A program made the position numbers and the translations under genes. Of a stretch of DNA of 64,000 nt, positions 25,892 to 33,551 are shown in pieces (within the stretch, counting starts at the first letter, position 1; every line of letters begins with the position of its first letter). The notes under the pieces are model-generated. The model was not told the DNA's origin, did not search any database, and saw only the letters and a list, made by a program, of their open reading frames with translations. The stretch spans positions 97,771 through 161,770 of the forward strand of contig JBHLMN010000015.1 of the NCBI GenBank assembly GCA_048938105.1. Direction: 5' to 3'. The stretch comes from Promethearchaeota archaeon (GTDB taxonomy: Archaea > Asgardarchaeota > Heimdallarchaeia > Hodarchaeales > Hodarchaeaceae).

Positions 25892-27115
25892 TTGGAAGAT
25901 AATAATAAGTCTTCACAATCCAAAAAATCGAAGGAAGAGAAATCTCTGGAAGAAAAGGTTCTTGATGAAGCCAGATCCGATGAAATGGAAGAATTCTACC
26001 ATAAAGTTCAAGTAGACCTTGAAAAAGCAACATCGGGGCGCAGTGATTATCTAACGATTTTGGAAGAAGCTTATGCACAAGCTGAAAGAACCGAGAAAGA
26101 TTACATCGAAGACTTTAGACGGTTTGGTTTAGAAAGAGCGGAAAAAACAGAAGATATATACTTGATTTCCTGTTTTATGAGAAATGGACAACCATTGTTT
26201 GATTATCCTCTGTCTAAGAAGATTAATCTGCAAGAATCTTTAAGCTTTATTTTGAACACTATAACAAACTATGTCCAATACAAACTAGGAGAATTACTTG
26301 AAGTTCTTACCCTTGAATCCCAAACCATTCATTTTTTCGTGATTGAACAGATCATTATTGCAATTGTTACTTCAAAATTTATCCCCCGAGATAAAATCTA
26401 TATGTTAGCTATTCAAATCGGACAAATTATAAATCAATATCCGAATAAAAATCCTCAAAACAGTCCAGATTTACGTATTGATCTAGATAATGCGATTACA
26501 ACAGCTAAATCAACACTTGTTCAGGAACATCACACTTTGAAGGTAATCCTGATTGGTGATGGCGCTGTAGGGAAAACTTCAATAAGAAGGCGCTATCTTG
26601 GAGAAGGGTTTCAGATTGATTATCAAATGACTATAGGGGCAGATCTAGCTGCTAAAACATCTGATATAGTCTATACTGGCGGTAAACAGATAAAATACCT
26701 AATCTGGGATCTCGCTGGCCAACCCCGCTTTACTAATGTGAGAAAAATCTATTACATGTCTGCGGTAGGAGCCCTGGTTGTCTTCGATATCACACGTCCT
26801 GAGAGTTATCAGAATATTGTGAAATGGATGAATGAGCTCTGGCGCAATAACGGACGTGGCCCAGTACCATTAATTGTATTAGCTAACAAAACAGATTTAT
26901 GCAAGGCTGGTTTACCCTGTGTTTCTAAAGAAAAAATACAGGCTTTTGTATCTCGTTTGTCACAAATTTCAGAGAAATACCGCGGTTTCAAGATATACTT
27001 TCTTCCAACAAGTGCAAAAACAGGCCAAAATATAGAACAAGCATTTGAGCTGTTAGGTGAGTCTATCGTTGACTTTTTATCTTCTGTGAAAGTCTCTGGA
27101 GGAAAAAAATCGTAA
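25892..27115 (+). CDS. Longin-like domain fused to a Rab-like GTPase
   Basis: Central longin-type beta/alpha pattern; GDGAVGKTS, TIGADL, IWDLAGQ, YYMSA, NKTD, TSAK; no C-terminal Cys. Confidence 0.85.
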   Translation: MEDNNKSSQSKKSKEEKSLEEKVLDEARSDEMEEFYHKVQVDLEKATSGRSDYLTILEEAYAQAERTEKDYIEDFRRFGLERAEKTEDIYLISCFMRNGQPLFDYPLSKKINLQESLSFILNTITNYVQYKLGELLEVLTLESQTIHFFVIEQIIIAIVTSKFIPRDKIYMLAIQIGQIINQYPNKNPQNSPDLRIDLDNAITTAKSTLVQEHHTLKVILIGDGAVGKTSIRRRYLGEGFQIDYQMTIGADLAAKTSDIVYTGGKQIKYLIWDLAGQPRFTNVRKIYYMSAVGALVVFDITRPESYQNIVKWMNELWRNNGRGPVPLIVLANKTDLCKAGLPCVSKEKIQAFVSRLSQISEKYRGFKIYFLPTSAKTGQNIEQAFELLGESIVDFLSSVKVSGGKKS

Positions 27116-27423: not shown

Positions 27424-28200
27424 ATGTTTAAGCCTACAATTCAAAGAAAGGAGCCAGAAAAAAAAATGGATAGAGATTTTATTTTAGCACGAGAGGCACA
27501 GCTGGTTTATTCTAATTCCGCAGCCTCAGGATTCAATCCTGTAGGAGAATCCTTAGCTCGATGGCAAGGGACATTAACTTATACAACCAGTAGGGGTCGA
27601 AACATGTTCACTTTCGAGATTTTTTTACCAGAATATTTTCCAAATGTCCCCCCCGTGGTTACAGCAGTTGGCTACATGGATCACCCAAACATCGATGAGG
27701 ATAGCTTTATCCAATTACGAATCCTAGATAATTGGCGTGCGGAGTTTCATCTATATCAAGTGATTATAGCATTAAAGAACCTTATGTCTAGGGTGCCTCC
27801 AACTCCCAAAGGTGAGGCTGCTAAGACAGTTCGCGAGACAGTCGCCCGTTTAACAGAAACACCCCCAGTAGCCGAACCTCAGACAACCTCCGCAGAAACC
27901 ACAGCCTTGAGAACAGAGATATCTTCTTTGACACATAAAATGCAGGAAAAAGATGAGGAATTAGCCCGATTACGCGCACAGCAAATGGTTCAAGTACAAT
28001 CCTCTCAAAGAGATGAACATTTAAGCCTTTCAGCTCAAGATAACCTCGAATCAGAACGTATTGCCCTCTCAGAATTATTAGCATCACTTGAAGATCGCTA
28101 TGCAGCTGGAGAGATTTCAATTTTCGAATATTCACGTTTATATAAAAAATATACAAAAGAACTCTATACAATTCGAAAACAATTAAGTTATTTGGGATAG
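27424..28200 (+). CDS. vps23: ESCRT-I Vps23/TSG101-like (UEV, coiled coil, steadiness box)
   Basis: E2-variant fold (LPEYFPNVPP, HPNI, no catalytic Cys), Pro/Thr linker, coiled coil, GEISIFEYSRLYKKY hairpin. Confidence 0.88.
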   Translation: MFKPTIQRKEPEKKMDRDFILAREAQLVYSNSAASGFNPVGESLARWQGTLTYTTSRGRNMFTFEIFLPEYFPNVPPVVTAVGYMDHPNIDEDSFIQLRILDNWRAEFHLYQVIIALKNLMSRVPPTPKGEAAKTVRETVARLTETPPVAEPQTTSAETTALRTEISSLTHKMQEKDEELARLRAQQMVQVQSSQRDEHLSLSAQDNLESERIALSELLASLEDRYAAGEISIFEYSRLYKKYTKELYTIRKQLSYLG

Positions 28201-28210
28201 GATAAACTTC

Positions 28211-28831
28211 ATGACTTTTCCTCCAAATTTAGCAAAGCGTTGGGAATTGGAAGGGCATCTATATGCAAGTATTGGGACTCTTGACTTATTATCTCGAACT
28301 TTTGAGCGAGGTGAGTTAGATCCGAATATTTTCCATAAACAACACAAGAATCTCTTATCAACAATTGTCGCGATTCGAGCAAAGTTAGAGAACTATAATT
28401 TTGACTTGGATGACTTCATTCAAACTGAACAGATCCAAAAATTATTCCCTTATGGTCTTGAAAAACTCCATAAGACTGAGGGTACAGATGAATCTCCTGG
28501 AAATCGCATTGATTATAGCCAAATTAAAAAACTCCCCAGTATTGCTGCCGAATTCGTAGCTAATGCTATTGAATTACTAGATCTTCTTCGTTTAGAAGCC
28601 ATTGCAACTGTAGACCGAGTTTTACCTTATTTAGATGAGCTTTATGCAATCCTAATCAAATCTCATGTATATGGAGCTGACCATTGGGTAACCCAAGATA
28701 TTAATGAGTGGATAAGATGGATGGACAGACAAAAACCAGGCCAACTCTTAAAGCAAGACGAACTACGAAAGTTAGAATTGCAAGCTGCAAGATGGTTATC
28801 TGATTTTCGACGAGAATTGAGTAATCTTTAA
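28211..28831 (+). CDS. vps28: ESCRT-I Vps28-like
   Basis: LYASIGTLDLL N-terminal hairpin; AAEFVANAIELLDLLRL..VDRVLPYL C-terminal four-helix bundle. Confidence 0.88.
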   Translation: MTFPPNLAKRWELEGHLYASIGTLDLLSRTFERGELDPNIFHKQHKNLLSTIVAIRAKLENYNFDLDDFIQTEQIQKLFPYGLEKLHKTEGTDESPGNRIDYSQIKKLPSIAAEFVANAIELLDLLRLEAIATVDRVLPYLDELYAILIKSHVYGADHWVTQDINEWIRWMDRQKPGQLLKQDELRKLELQAARWLSDFRRELSNL

Positions 28832-28847
28832 GGTATTCTAAAGTCTA

Positions 28848-30197
28848 TTAAGTGAAAAGATTAGTTTTCCCTGTTCGAACAAGCAATTCAGTAATTGCAT
28901 CATTTATTTTAGCAAGCTCTAATTCGAATTGCTTGATTAACTCGAAATAATCTCGACTTGATACTTTTTTTCTGCCTTCTTTGAGTTCCTGTAATGCCTT
29001 TTCGTTTGCTAATTTTCGTAACCGTAGATCGCGTAGGCGGTCGTCTAGAACTCCTGTTACAAAATCAGGTTCCCTTTCTTGATCGGAAGTTGACTCAGTC
29101 GTTCCCTTTGTATTTCCAATTATATTTGAATTAAAATTAAGAGCTGATAGGATTTTTTCCTGATAAATTTCGGAAGACCAATCTCGGAAAGGTTCATGGA
29201 CATATATATCACTGGGACGTCCGTAATAACTAAGTTGGAGTGCATCAAATATTCGCATTAGGGTTTGACAATCAGCTCGTAGTTCATAATCATGTTTAAT
29301 GGTTGTTATTTGAAGCTTATCTCGTTTAAGAAATCCAACGCTTGTTTTTTGAACATCAATCAGATCTTCAGGTGGAAATTCATCATTTACAACAATTTTG
29401 CGAGCTAGGATATTATGTCTTTTTTTACTAAGTATAACAATTCTATCAGTTGTGATTACTAAATCAATAGAACTTTTTCTAATACCACCATTTGGTAATC
29501 CAATATTTGGGAAAAAACCAATAGCTAATTCCCCAGGTACAAAAACAAAGACATCAAAGCACCGTCCAAGATGTCGTGCCATCTCTTCAAACTGATCGCA
29601 CTGATTTTCTATATCCTCAATTAGATCATGAATCGGTTGAAGTTTATCATGGACCGTTTGATCGAAACTGGTAATTTGCTTCTGGAAAAGACTAAGTTGA
29701 AGCGAAAGATTACGATAATCAGTAAAAGAGGAGTCTAATCCCATTAAACTGCGATAGAGTCGATTTAATTTCGAAGCATATTCTTGAAATTCTGATAAGG
29801 TAAAATTTTCGATTTTTTTGGTGTCAAGAAAGATTTTATCGATCTGATTTCCTGGGATTAAAAACTGTTTTCTAAAAGATCGTAGTCTAGATTCAAGATG
29901 CCCCGTACGTTTAAGTACGATTACTGGACGATAAGCTACTTGTTTAAGCGAGCGCTTCAACTCAAAAATATGTTCCAAAGTTTCAGTTTTCAAGTTTTGT
30001 GAAGGAGAACCCATTTCTACGTTCATTGAACCACAAGGACATTTAAACTGGGCATCATCGGTCTGTAGTTGAGAAGCGCACTTGGAACAGAATGCTGCAC
30101 CGCAATCATAACACTTTTGGGAATCTAATTCGCGAATCATGGTGCCACAAAACGAACAATAAAAGCTTGACATCCCGGAAGGCATCTTGAGCACCAC
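28848..30197 (-). CDS. FYVE-like Zn finger / coiled-coil / PH-like / steadiness-box-like protein
   Basis: C-x2-C-x11-C-x2-C-x4-C-x2-C-x12-C-x-C; DLVITTDRIVIL..LIDVQ..KLQITT PH/GRAM-like strands; C-terminus aligns with the Vps23 steadiness box. Confidence 0.65.
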   Translation of the reverse strand: MVLKMPSGMSSFYCSFCGTMIRELDSQKCYDCGAAFCSKCASQLQTDDAQFKCPCGSMNVEMGSPSQNLKTETLEHIFELKRSLKQVAYRPVIVLKRTGHLESRLRSFRKQFLIPGNQIDKIFLDTKKIENFTLSEFQEYASKLNRLYRSLMGLDSSFTDYRNLSLQLSLFQKQITSFDQTVHDKLQPIHDLIEDIENQCDQFEEMARHLGRCFDVFVFVPGELAIGFFPNIGLPNGGIRKSSIDLVITTDRIVILSKKRHNILARKIVVNDEFPPEDLIDVQKTSVGFLKRDKLQITTIKHDYELRADCQTLMRIFDALQLSYYGRPSDIYVHEPFRDWSSEIYQEKILSALNFNSNIIGNTKGTTESTSDQEREPDFVTGVLDDRLRDLRLRKLANEKALQELKEGRKKVSSRDYFELIKQFELELAKINDAITELLVRTGKTNLFT

Positions 30198-30379
30198 GTA
30201 CTATCCCAGTGGGTAAAAACTTTAGCTCTTAGTTTATAAGCTTACAAAGTCTTGACATATTATGCCAATCTAAAAATTAAGAAAATAGTGAATTATAACT
30301 ACTTAGGCTTAGAGGTGCTTCTATAAGTCGTTTTAACTGTTTCATCTACCAATTATTATCAGTTTTAAACAGTACTATC

Positions 30380-30973
30380 TTAAGCACCAATTTCGGACTC
30401 AACTGGCTTATAATACTTATATAACCAATTTGCACTTATTAAAAAGAATACACCGATTAACATCATTACCAAGAGGTATATATTAAGGATAGGAGGATAC
30501 CATGTAACTCCACTCATGAGAGAAACATGGTTCTTCCATGGTTCTTGAATCATTATTATGATTATGAGTAACCATTCTATAAAAATTGAAATAATGGTTA
30601 TTATTGATAACCAATAAAGGATAATAAAATTCTCTTTCCTTAAGAACTCAACTATCGCAAAAATTAATACGAGAATTCCCAACAGAATCATACACCAACC
30701 TGGGATCACGAGATAATCAATTATGCTGTCGAATGCAAAATCCGTAAAATAATATCCTGATTTTCCAGATTCATGAATATAATACGAGTCAAAGAAATAC
30801 GAATATTTGGTAATAAACGAATCTGCGGTAACGAAATACCATCTTTCACTCCTTTCAAAGAAAGGAAATATTTTAGCTGCAGGGATTATCACACAAAGGA
30901 TAAAAAATCCGATAAATAATAAGAAGCGAAATTTAGGCCATCTTTTTTGGTCGAGAGTCAGTTGAGAATGCAT
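30380..30973 (-). CDS. Hypothetical four-TM membrane protein
   Basis: 197-aa ORF with four hydrophobic segments. Confidence 0.65.
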   Translation of the reverse strand: MHSQLTLDQKRWPKFRFLLFIGFFILCVIIPAAKIFPFFERSERWYFVTADSFITKYSYFFDSYYIHESGKSGYYFTDFAFDSIIDYLVIPGWCMILLGILVLIFAIVEFLRKENFIILYWLSIITIISIFIEWLLIIIIMIQEPWKNHVSLMSGVTWYPPILNIYLLVMMLIGVFFLISANWLYKYYKPVESEIGA

Positions 30974-31508
30974 TGGTTTTTTCCTGAATCATCACTTACT
31001 ATTTAATCTTACATTGAAGCCCTATATAAGTTTTACTCATATCTTTCTATTCATGAATCCAGCTTTTTGATCAGATAATCAAGTACAATCCTGATTTTAG
31101 AAACTATCCGTAATTATTATGAAATTTACTTAAGATACCCTATTCATTGGTTTATATTTCGGGATCCGAGGTTTTAGAAGATATTTCTCTAAGTGTAGTT
31201 GCCATTCAGCTAGAGTGGTAAGTGGTTAATCGAAATCAATTATGAAATTATGAGCTATTTTTTTGAGGAAAAATTATGTTACTTAATCAGAGTATATTAG
31301 TGGATCCTGCAATTTGGATCCTGTATAACTATTTATTTAACTATCTTCGTTTATTAAAGACTTGAGGAACCAACATGCCTCCTGAGAATATGGATAAAGA
31401 CAAGTCAGAGGATAATTGATTGGAGCTTTAACCAACTACAGAGCGAATTTTTCAAAACTCTAGAACTAAAATCCTTAGAGGAAATTCAATCCAAGTGAGG
31501 TTAAACAG

Positions 31509-32717
31509 ATGCAAGTGACTCGCACAGAACAAATTTGGATCAAACCCCATAAATCCCTTTCTTGGTTCTGTCATCTCTCAAAAAACCTCTATAACGAAGG
31601 AAATTATCTGATTCGTCAAGAATTGTTCAATAACAAAAAATGGATTCGTTATAATGACCTGTACCACTTACTTAAGACTTCTAATAATTATCAACATCTC
31701 CCTGCCCAGACTAATCAACAGGTCTTGAAAATCCTTGATAGGAACTGGAAAGCTTTTTTTAGCACTATCAGAGAGTGGAAGAAGGATAAATCGAAATTTA
31801 ACGGAAGACCGAAAGCTCCTAGGTATAAACCAAAGAATGGAGAGTTTATACTGGTTTTTACGAACCAGCAAGTGAAATTAAAAGATAAAACCCTGCTATT
31901 TCCAAAAAAAGTAAGTTGTAAGCTGAATACTAGACTTGATGACAAAACTGACATCAGAGAGGTACGAATTATCCCAAAAGGGGTAGGTTATATTGTAGAA
32001 ATCGTCTACGAGAAGAATTTTCATCCTAAACTTATGAATAAAAATAAAATCATTGCAATTGATTTAGGGGTTCACAATTTCATAACTACAGTCAATAACA
32101 ATGGCTTGAAACCATTTGTTATTAAAGGTGGGGTTGTTAAATCCATTAATCAATACTATAACAAAGAACGAGCACGGATTCAATCAACTTATGATCGTCA
32201 GGGAATAAAAACAGGAAAGACCATGCAAAAATTAACAGCTAAACGCAATAAAAAGATAAATGACTATTTCCACAAAACTAGCAGAAAAATTATTGAGTAC
32301 TGCGTAATGAATGACATTGGAACAGTTGTGATCGGGTACAATTCTAATTGGAAGAAAAACAGCCAGATCGGTAAAAAGAATAATCAAAATTTTGTCACTA
32401 TTCCTTATAATAAGCTAATTCAGCAATTAGACTACAAAGCTGAAGAGCAGGGAATAACGGTCATTAAACAGGAGGAAAGTTATTCGAGTAAGTGTTCTTT
32501 TTTGGATAACGAGCCAATCGAAAAACATAACCGATTTCTAGGCCAAAGAATAACTAGAGGACTATTCAAATCCCACAAAGGTATTATCATTAATGCTGAT
32601 GTGAATGGGGCCTATAATATTTTGAAAAAAGCATTCCTGAACGCGGTTGACGCTGACAGGATAGAGGCTGTTGGGTTACATCCCACACGATGGAGACTAG
32701 CTGCGGTAACGAGCTAG
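31509..32717 (+). CDS. tnpB: RNA-guided endonuclease TnpB (IS200/IS605 family), copy 1
   Basis: KNLYN, RuvC motifs IAIDLG, QEESYSSK, INADVNGAYNI. Confidence 0.95.
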   Translation: MQVTRTEQIWIKPHKSLSWFCHLSKNLYNEGNYLIRQELFNNKKWIRYNDLYHLLKTSNNYQHLPAQTNQQVLKILDRNWKAFFSTIREWKKDKSKFNGRPKAPRYKPKNGEFILVFTNQQVKLKDKTLLFPKKVSCKLNTRLDDKTDIREVRIIPKGVGYIVEIVYEKNFHPKLMNKNKIIAIDLGVHNFITTVNNNGLKPFVIKGGVVKSINQYYNKERARIQSTYDRQGIKTGKTMQKLTAKRNKKINDYFHKTSRKIIEYCVMNDIGTVVIGYNSNWKKNSQIGKKNNQNFVTIPYNKLIQQLDYKAEEQGITVIKQEESYSSKCSFLDNEPIEKHNRFLGQRITRGLFKSHKGIIINADVNGAYNILKKAFLNAVDADRIEAVGLHPTRWRLAAVTS

Positions 32718-32771
32718 TTGATGACCTCATGTGAAAAAAGTTGAATAGATTTCTATTCAACTGCAATAACC
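31509..32771 (+). mobile_element. Non-autonomous IS200/IS605-like element; right end ~32771, left end not defined
   Basis: Post-stop sequence shared with copy 2 up to AATAACC; hairpin GTTGAATAG-ATTT-CTATTCAAC at 32740-32761; no tnpA. Confidence 0.75.
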
Positions 32772-32792
32772 TAAAGAATTATAAATGAAATC

Positions 32793-33551
32793 GTGCGAAA
32801 TCTACTCGGAATCATAGATGGGATGATTACAAGAATGGGATTACGGAGAATCGAAGAGAAACTCACTCAGGAAGCTGAGATGAAGCGTAAAGGCGCAGAA
32901 TTAGCACTGAAATCTTTAGAGGAAATGACCCAAAAAGTACAGGATCTTCATAAAGATTTGGAAAAATTAGAAAAAAGATATCAGACAGATTTAAAGAAGA
33001 ATCCCGAATTGTCTCGACGACTAATGGCACTTCGAGAGGAATTAGGCCTTCCCCGTGCCATAGGCATTTATGAGATAGGGAAACAGCCAAGTTTGATGCA
33101 GCGATTGAAAGGGAAGGATGAATATCATAATGTCTTGGCATTACGAATCTTAGAGCTAGGAAAACAAATACGAAGTCAGACTGGTGGACTTCTCAGTGTC
33201 TCAGAATTAACCTTAAAGTTAAGTGATGAGAGTCAAGGAATTACTACCTCAATTGATGACATTACAACAGCTCTCAATTTGTTGAAAAAGAATGGAATGA
33301 TTCATGATATCCGTCAATTAGCAGGGATGAAAGTTGTAGTGTTTATTGATCCTAACCTAACTACAGACCACCAAACTATCTTAGAATTTGCAGCTCGATT
33401 TCAGGGTCAAATCAGCTTAACTGAATTAGTTAGAGAGACATCTTGGACACTGGAACGTGTAAACCAGGGGTTAACACAATTAATCCAACAAAAAATTGCA
33501 ATTAAAACCGAAACTCTGGACGGAATAGTCATATCATTTCCAGGGATCTGA
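32793..33551 (+). CDS. ESCRT-II Vps22/Vps36-like (EAP30) protein; real start may be the ATG of MGLRRI
   Basis: N-terminal helix/coil, LKKNPE, TGGLLSVSEL winged helix, second winged helix ISLTELVRETSWTLERV. Confidence 0.88.
   Translation: MRNLLGIIDGMITRMGLRRIEEKLTQEAEMKRKGAELALKSLEEMTQKVQDLHKDLEKLEKRYQTDLKKNPELSRRLMALREELGLPRAIGIYEIGKQPSLMQRLKGKDEYHNVLALRILELGKQIRSQTGGLLSVSELTLKLSDESQGITTSIDDITTALNLLKKNGMIHDIRQLAGMKVVVFIDPNLTTDHQTILEFAARFQGQISLTELVRETSWTLERVNQGLTQLIQQKIAIKTETLDGIVISFPGI

Follow-up and report, generated by a model that had tools for sequence, protein, structure and literature searches.

The window analysed here, i.e., the whole stretch of 64,000 nucleotides from contig JBHLMN010000015.1 of a Promethearchaeota archaeon belonging to the Hodarchaeales (GenBank assembly GCA_048938105.1, positions 97,771 to 161,770 of the forward strand), contains on its minus strand, at 28848..30197, a gene encoding a protein of 449 residues followed by a stop codon. 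[quoted passage not shown] According to this reading, the conserved C-terminal hairpin of the protein would dock on the headpiece built from Vps23 and Vps28, and a flexible linker would join the hairpin to a rigid stalk of three helices. The stalk would carry a PH domain of the GRAM/GLUE type together with a two-zinc cross-brace finger, both of which may supply contacts with membranes, ubiquitin, cargo or a GTPase, by analogy with the GLUE domain of Vps36 which is absent from the local Vps22/36 protein of 252 residues. The reality of the gene, the folds of its domains, the family membership, the homology of the hairpin to steadiness boxes and the synteny with ESCRT genes are established. The protein belongs to a described Asgard family and represents no new kind of system; what is added here is the near-universal distribution of the family in Asgard archaea, the statistical support for its hairpin as a steadiness box of the Vps23 type, and the presence of a compact two-zinc form, encoded precisely where the ESCRT-I and ESCRT-II genes meet, in Hodarchaeales, which have been proposed as the archaea closest to eukaryotes. 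This compact form also offers a convenient construct for binding experiments.

The family was described by Makarova et al. 2024 (mBio, PMC10936438) as the Asgard cluster asCOG cog.011556 with the same domains, and was qualified as 'a likely ESCRT-I component' and regarded as 'likely to be ancestral in Asgardarchaeota', its PH domain being expected to be membrane associated by analogy with Vps36. An original prediction, made from the letters of the window, had presented the architecture as one not yet described; this claim of novelty fails, because both the architecture and the same proposal of a role in completing ESCRT-I and targeting it to the membrane, for which Znr_CC_PH_SB is the published candidate in Asgard archaea, are found in PMC10936438. 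The cluster cog.011556 was also used as a source of steadiness boxes in 10.1101/2023.07.25.550441. The rows available from the table of PMC10936438 include a member of 650 residues from Lokiarchaeum GC14_75, encoded close to Vps20, and the distant relative OLS27508.1 does not appear among the listed rows of its supplement. No experimental study of Znr_CC_PH_SB came up in the literature searches.

Assignment of the 449-residue protein to this family relies on a hidden Markov model (HMM) built exclusively from 27 Asgard long-form open reading frames, with no Hodarchaeales sequence among them, which matches the protein end to end (residues 10-59 and 53-442, E 9.4e-19) and also recognizes the Vps23 encoded in the window, over its coiled coil and steadiness box at the C-terminus (E 4.5e-6). 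The long forms themselves, which measure about 470-560 residues and combine a helical region, a PH domain and a hairpin with six pairs of the CxxC type, were assigned to Znr_CC_PH_SB by their fit to the published description, and on this profile evidence the protein is a divergent short member of the family. It shares with the family the order of the domains, the linkage to ESCRT genes and a distribution confined to Asgard archaea, and the coiled-coil region, the PH domain and the C-terminal steadiness box of the published description are all present. However, it differs by two zinc sites (8 Cys) instead of the three N-terminal zinc ribbons (12 Cys) published for the family, being a short variant, by its length of 449 residues compared to the long forms and to the 650 residues of the Lokiarchaeum protein, by the location of its gene between vps22 and vps28 rather than beside an ESCRT-III gene, and by a conserved GKTNL tail. 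The nearest neighbour in the ESM Atlas is an archaeal cluster of 698 residues labelled Promethearchaeota, with a template modelling (TM) score of 0.57 over residues 6-376.

A mixed profile of the family gives matches at E <= 1e-5 in 383 of the 399 Asgard genomes searched, including 84 of the 89 high-quality genomes and 83 of the 85 genera, and about 358 of the 383 matching genomes score below E 1e-20. Judged from these profile matches, Znr_CC_PH_SB is near-universal in Asgard genomes. Four families, most of them with small genomes of about 1.2-2.9 Mb (f9, f24, f25 and f27), match the profile only weakly (E 1e-6 to 1e-11) or not at all, and these lineages may be devoid of the protein, which, if so, would fit another way of completing ESCRT-I in them.

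The open reading frame at 28848..30197 is a real, conserved gene, with 52 close homologues of 52-93% identity that are all labelled Hodarchaeales or Heimdall-type metagenome-assembled genomes. A look for RNA evidence over 27424-30400 of the window yielded no listed entry. The AlphaFold2 model obtained from a 20-sequence alignment (predicted local distance difference test, pLDDT, 77.9) comprises a zinc module (residues 11-60), a helical region (67-212), a PH sandwich (225-325), a linker (358-377) and a hairpin (378-442), and agrees with the profile comparisons on the order originally proposed for this protein, namely a zinc module followed by a long helical stalk, a PH-like domain and a steadiness-box-like hairpin. 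Conservation of the alignment columns is unevenly distributed along the chain, with 0.89 for the segment following the PH domain, 0.81 for the hairpin, 0.76 for the helices (within the genus), 0.68 for the zinc module and 0.38 for the linker. When the protein is searched alone against Pfam, neither its PH domain nor its hairpin is recognized, and the zinc-ribbon and coiled-coil matches that it yields lie below threshold.

The C-terminal hairpin (residues 378-442; 28872..29066, minus strand) is made of helices 378-407 and 414-442 in the model. When an alignment of 26 family C-termini (A7), including distant relatives gathered by whole-genome searches, is compared by hhalign with that of the local Vps23 family (A4), residues 382-438 align with residues 199-257 of Vps23 over 59 columns, with a probability of 92.7% and E 4.4e-7. 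These are the same residues that had initially been aligned with the box of the neighbouring Vps23. With shallow alignments limited to the genus, the best local alignment of the hairpin with Vps23 is again that one, and the E-values of 0.36 against Vps23 and 0.16 against Vps28 are both non-significant, so that the similarity to Vps23 reaches significance only once the distant members of the family are added. The A7 profile additionally matches the C-terminus of the Vps23 of the window (E 1.0e-5), the yeast Vps23 structures 2p22_A (E 8.5e-5), 2f66_A (E 1.7e-4) and 2caz_A (E 9e-4), and the headpiece hairpin of human TSG101 (6vme_B, E 1.2e-3). Two relatives also match Pfam Vps23_core below threshold (E 2e-4 with 21.7 bits against a cut-off of 26.8, and E 1.9e-3). 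Since the profile of the diverse family matches both the local Vps23 and the solved Vps23/TSG101 structures, the assignment of the hairpin as a steadiness box of the Vps23 type is supported at the level of profile comparison. The two-helix hairpin is thus homologous, at that level, to those of Vps23 and TSG101 (Vps23_core; 2p22, 2f66, 2caz, 6vme), but the protein lacks the UEV (ubiquitin E2 variant) domain that Vps23/TSG101 possess, and its hairpin follows a disordered linker instead of continuing a stalk helix.

The best match of the A7 profile among solved structures is PDB 8WHN (E 2e-5, in two stretches), which represents the helical part of OST1/ribophorin I that faces the cytoplasm in the Asgard archaeon MK-D1 (PMC11417166). 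Both share a '...G-x-I-x-x-x-x-Y...' turn motif, and the similarity may reflect either homology or a common hairpin motif.

The gene is part of a complete Asgard ubiquitin-ESCRT cluster which successively comprises genes for an Arf-like GTPase, a KaiC-like ATPase, the E1 enzyme ThiF, Yip1, PAP2 and a Ras-like GTPase, followed by those for UEV-Vps23, Vps28, the 449-residue protein, Vps22/36, two Snf7-family ESCRT-III proteins, Vps4 and Vps25. The two proposed partners have adjacent genes on the plus strand, UEV-Vps23, which combines an E2-variant domain with a coiled coil and a steadiness box, at 27424..28200 (Pfam UQ_con, E 8.2e-13) and Vps28 at 28211..28831 (Pfam VPS28, E 1.2e-11). The vps28 gene, which ends at 28831, converges on the gene under study with 16 bases between the two stop codons, as the open reading frames and Pfam annotation confirm. 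On the other side, the divergent vps22/36 gene (32793..33551, plus strand; Pfam EAP30, E 2.3e-16) encodes 252 residues, of which EAP30 covers residues 16-234 and thereby leaves no room for a GLUE domain, in accordance with the absence of GLUE noted at the outset.

In all 18 related loci from a collection of species-representative genomes, the gene adjoins a convergent vps28, and vps22 is its direct neighbour on the other side in all 16 loci where vps22 was detected. The related loci which extend far enough keep one local order, in which vps22 flanks the gene on one side whereas vps28, vps23 and the gene of the Ras-like GTPase follow on the opposite side. Among 27 distant loci, an ESCRT gene lies within 5 kb in 22, the nearest being mostly an ESCRT-III gene at 3-150 bp, and the distant relatives adjoin Snf7-family or Arf-like genes. 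The tight linkage to ESCRT genes put forward in the original prediction is supported by all 18 related loci, and the role of ESCRT-I adaptor also proposed there is plausible.

Several observations nevertheless weigh against attachment to ESCRT-I. The protein alone has no significant Pfam match for either its PH domain or its hairpin. Outside Hodarchaeales, the gene usually stands beside an ESCRT-III gene and not beside vps23 or vps28. The hairpin is preceded by a disordered and variable linker (pLDDT <50), with no continuous stalk helix comparable to that of Vps37. In addition, the ESCRT-I of Odinarchaeota was reported to contain two Vps23 for one Vps28 (Hatano et al. 2022, PMC9192718), so that a second Vps23 may fill the third slot of the headpiece. 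As for the assembly itself, a complex predicted from Vps23 196-258, Vps28 1-105 and residues 372-449 of the protein lends it weak support. Its score of 0.59 (runs of 0.00, 0.71 and 0.59) passes a mark that 58 of 80 solved complexes attain, as do 2 of 110 mismatched pairs, but only 7 of the 80 solved complexes attain it with a score of 0.60 or less, as do both passing mismatches, and the pass may reflect likeness only, because ESCRT-I headpieces are among the solved structures. Agreement of contacts between the runs is at least 0%, with partner pLDDT values of at least 66; among 3 controls the highest score was 0.37, and replacement of Vps28 gave 0.00.

A more specific proposal, which we regard as rather unlikely, assigns to the protein in Hodarchaeales the very position of Vps37. 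Vps37 is the eukaryotic ESCRT-I subunit that possesses a Mod_r domain and donates the third hairpin of the headpiece. The hairpin of the 449-residue protein would similarly complete a heterotrimeric Vps23-Vps28-X headpiece, and its PH domain and zinc module would form the membrane- and cargo-targeting arm of ESCRT-I. If this were true, the functions of ESCRT-0 and GLUE would be older than eukaryotes and would have been combined in one Asgard subunit, from which Vps37 could be derived by domain loss. To date, no homologue of Vps37, Mvb12 or ESCRT-0 is known in Asgard archaea (PMC9192718), and a search of the whole genome, which is 99% complete, for Mod_r (PF07200) gave no match at E <= 0.1. A Mod_r assignment was rejected on this basis. 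The 'Vps37-like' label initially given to the protein is not specifically supported, with no Mod_r match in the genome, a hairpin that matches Vps23/TSG101, no stalk helix in front of it and weak modelling support for a three-hairpin assembly. The resemblance to Vps37 is confined to the proposed donation of a third hairpin, as opposed to the lack of the stalk-helix-plus-hairpin arrangement and the presence of additional zinc, helical and PH modules.

Owing to the linkage of the gene to ESCRT-III genes outside Hodarchaeales, the possibility of a recruiter acting on the ESCRT-III side, in a manner analogous to CdvA, stays alive, although we consider it improbable. Following this model, the PH domain and the zinc module would bind the membrane, and the hairpin would self-associate or engage ESCRT-III or ESCRT-II instead of the ESCRT-I headpiece. 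In the distant Asgard loci, the gene lies mostly 3-150 bp from a Snf7-family gene with vps4, vps25 and vps22 in the vicinity, vps28 being detected nearby in only one locus and vps23 in none; the Lokiarchaeum member listed in PMC10936438 is also found near Vps20, and the same article states a similarity between the steadiness box of the family and the hairpin of CdvA. On the other hand, the Hodarchaeales gene is the immediate neighbour of vps28 in all 18 loci, the hairpin profile specifically matches the headpiece hairpins of Vps23/TSG101, and the complex score falls to 0.00 when Vps28 is replaced, a weak piece of evidence.

The zinc module (residues 11-60; 30018..30167, minus strand) contains eight conserved cysteines arranged as C14-x2-C17-x11-C29-x2-C32-x4-C37-x2-C40-x12-C53-x-C55, which define two predicted zinc sites (alignments A1, A6 and A8). 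The protein and its genus possess four Cys pairs compared to the six of the long forms, and since the two missing pairs are the middle ones, it holds two zinc sites and not three. With its C-x2-C-x11-C-x2-C-x4-C-x2-C spacing and a helix beginning at the third pair, the module resembles FYVE, B-box type 1 and RING fingers equally, and because all the evidence on its class is below threshold, the term cross-brace-like is preferred. It differs from these fingers by the lack of the R(R/K)HHCR motif and of His ligands, and by scores that all fall short of the family thresholds, the Pfam matches to Zn_ribbon_3, FYVE and RING being weak. In this respect, only part of the FYVE-like label of the original prediction can be retained. 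The FYVE-type spacing is real, and the phosphatidylinositol 3-phosphate motif R(R/K)HHCR is indeed not present before C29, as that prediction had also stated. The specificity for FYVE is lost, with 11.6-13.7 bits in Pfam, far under the cut-off of 27.8, and with relatives that score better on B-box models and folds that point to RING; on the strength of these scores and of the missing motif, the FYVE assignment was rejected. The best sequence match of the module is the B-box1 of MID1, a weak one (E 0.0097), and the relatives come just under the cut-offs of zf-B_box (E 8.1e-5, 23.1 bits against 24.1) and ANCHR-like_BBOX (E 1.3e-5, 25.6 bits against 27). A model of the zinc domain only (pLDDT 70) retrieves the RING fingers of TRAF, TRIM and PRC1 and the zinc ribbon of TFIIE, at E 0.04-0.3 and TM 0.43-0.53. 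The module is thus tentatively described as a two-zinc cross-brace-like finger of uncertain class which scores best as B-box/RING-like, not as FYVE.

These likenesses to RING and B-box fingers, with the E-values just given, speak for a regulator of the ubiquitin system, whose finger would bind either an E2 or the UEV domain of Vps23, with the hairpin as its tether to ESCRT-I, a possibility that receives little credence here. The eukaryotic E3 ligases that act on the steadiness box of TSG101 offer a parallel, and both an E1 and a UEV protein are encoded in the locus. Ubiquitination of the steadiness box of Asgard Vps23 has also been reported (10.1101/2023.07.25.550441). This proposal is opposed by zinc-finger matches that all remain below the curated thresholds, by a last ligand pair of the C-x-C type, by alignments in which nothing but the Cys ligands is conserved in the module across the family, and by the position of the module as the least conserved folded domain (0.68).

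Residues 67-212 (29562..29999, minus strand) are folded in the AlphaFold2 model into three long helices (67-108, 117-151 and 161-212; pLDDT 83-97), which would form an intramolecular stalk or a coiled coil. They are followed by a GRAM/GLUE-type domain of PH fold (residues 216-330; 29208..29552, minus strand) which consists of a seven-stranded β-sandwich (strands 225-307) closed by a capping helix (310-325). Compared by VIA-align with solved structures, this domain superimposes on the PH-GRAM domain of MTMR2 (1lw3) with Z 12.8 and a root-mean-square deviation (rmsd) of 3.0 A over 109 residues, on the PH domain of Bcr with Z 12.6 and 2.6 A, on that of TAPP1 with Z 12.0 and 2.9 A, and on dozens of other PH domains with Z 10.5-12.6 and 2.1-3.6 A. 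The central domain of the protein, as modelled, is therefore a PH fold, and with Z 12-13 and rmsd 2.2-3.0 A to solved PH domains the PH fold originally proposed at this place is confirmed. Pfam gives no match for residues 210-335 of the protein, and its relatives match GRAM (E 4.2e-4, 20.6 bits against a cut-off of 23.6), the Vps36 GLUE model Vps36_ESCRT-II (E 1.1e-3, 19.6 bits against 24.1) and bPH_3, all below threshold. The likeness to Vps36 GLUE and to GRAM-type PH domains therefore consists of the PH fold with PH-GRAM as the best structural match, of a G-x-L-x-L-T-x-x-R-L-x-F strand motif in the relatives and of these sub-threshold matches; in contrast to Vps36, the PH domain has no EAP30 winged helices joined to it, and the zinc fingers are located N-terminally and not inserted within the PH domain. 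No BAR-PH entry, which would likewise show three long helices before a PH domain, figures among the 50 best VIA-align matches, and this does not amount to an exclusion.

That the protein would act as a DH-PH-like exchange factor, or as an effector of the PH type, for the Ras-like or Arf-like GTPases encoded nearby is most improbable. In its favour, DH-PH RhoGEFs are the top Foldseek matches (E 1.7e-6), the 16 related loci that reach far enough have a gene for a Ras-like GTPase upstream of vps23, and distant family members in the loci L042 and L048 are flanked by genes for Arf-like GTPases. However, TM is 0.18-0.25 and rmsd is 16-27 A for these Foldseek matches, and the VIA-align Z of DH-PH entries (11-12.3, with rmsd 5.7-19.9 A) does not exceed that of PH-only entries. 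The match is thus limited to the PH domain and generic helices, and for this reason the DH domain was rejected.

In the ESM Atlas, rows 2-4 correspond to clusters of Bathyarchaeota and Chloroflexota that resemble the helices-plus-PH part (about residues 87-334), with TM 0.32-0.38 by query, and one bacterial cluster is labelled with Pfam GRAM and Vps36_ESCRT-II. A module made of a helical stalk and a GRAM-type PH domain may accordingly occur outside Asgard archaea.

Three shorter segments complete the chain. The post-PH segment (residues 331-355, PFRDWSSEIYQEKIL; 29133..29207, minus strand) displays the highest conservation of all segments (0.89), and contains a short conserved helix (343-352) in the model and a tryptophan, W340, which is near-invariant even when distant relatives are included. 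The linker (residues 356-377; 29067..29132, minus strand) is variable (0.38) and disordered, with pLDDT <50 over residues 358-381. The C-terminal tail (residues 443-449; 28851..28871, minus strand) carries the GKTNL motif. In the 20 aligned sequences, T442, G443, K444 and N446 are invariant (TGKTNL), and this tail, which is kept in Hodarchaeales and partly in the relative P0059, may serve as a short docking motif.

With respect to the other genes of the locus, the Ras-like GTPase (25892-27115) has an N-terminal extension of about 200 residues, and its gene is located directly upstream of vps23 in all 16 loci that reach this far. In this genome only, an insertion of about 2.4 kb (30394..32771) separates the gene from vps22, as deduced from the homology to the closest related locus, L001, which breaks at 30393 and resumes at 32772. 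It harbours a gene for a multi-pass membrane protein of 197 residues (30380-30973, minus strand) and a TnpB gene (31509-32717, plus strand; OrfB_IS605, E 6.5e-25), both of which were found in none of the 18 related loci. The insertion ends about 21 bp upstream of the start of vps22 and may have displaced its promoter.

Elsewhere in the genome, the steadiness-box profile gives two weak matches, on contigs C3 and C38, to the tail of a Na+/H+ exchanger and to an SPFH protein, which are probably generic helices. The region C38:91869-93768 (L070:370-2269) also encodes a second protein of the EAP30/Vps36 family, of 333 residues with an unassigned N-terminal extension of about 137 residues, and its gene is followed after 10 bp by the SPFH/Band-7 gene whose product matches the profile weakly through its C-terminal helices (E 1.5e-3). 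These two proteins may represent an ESCRT-II paralogue paired with an SPFH protein.

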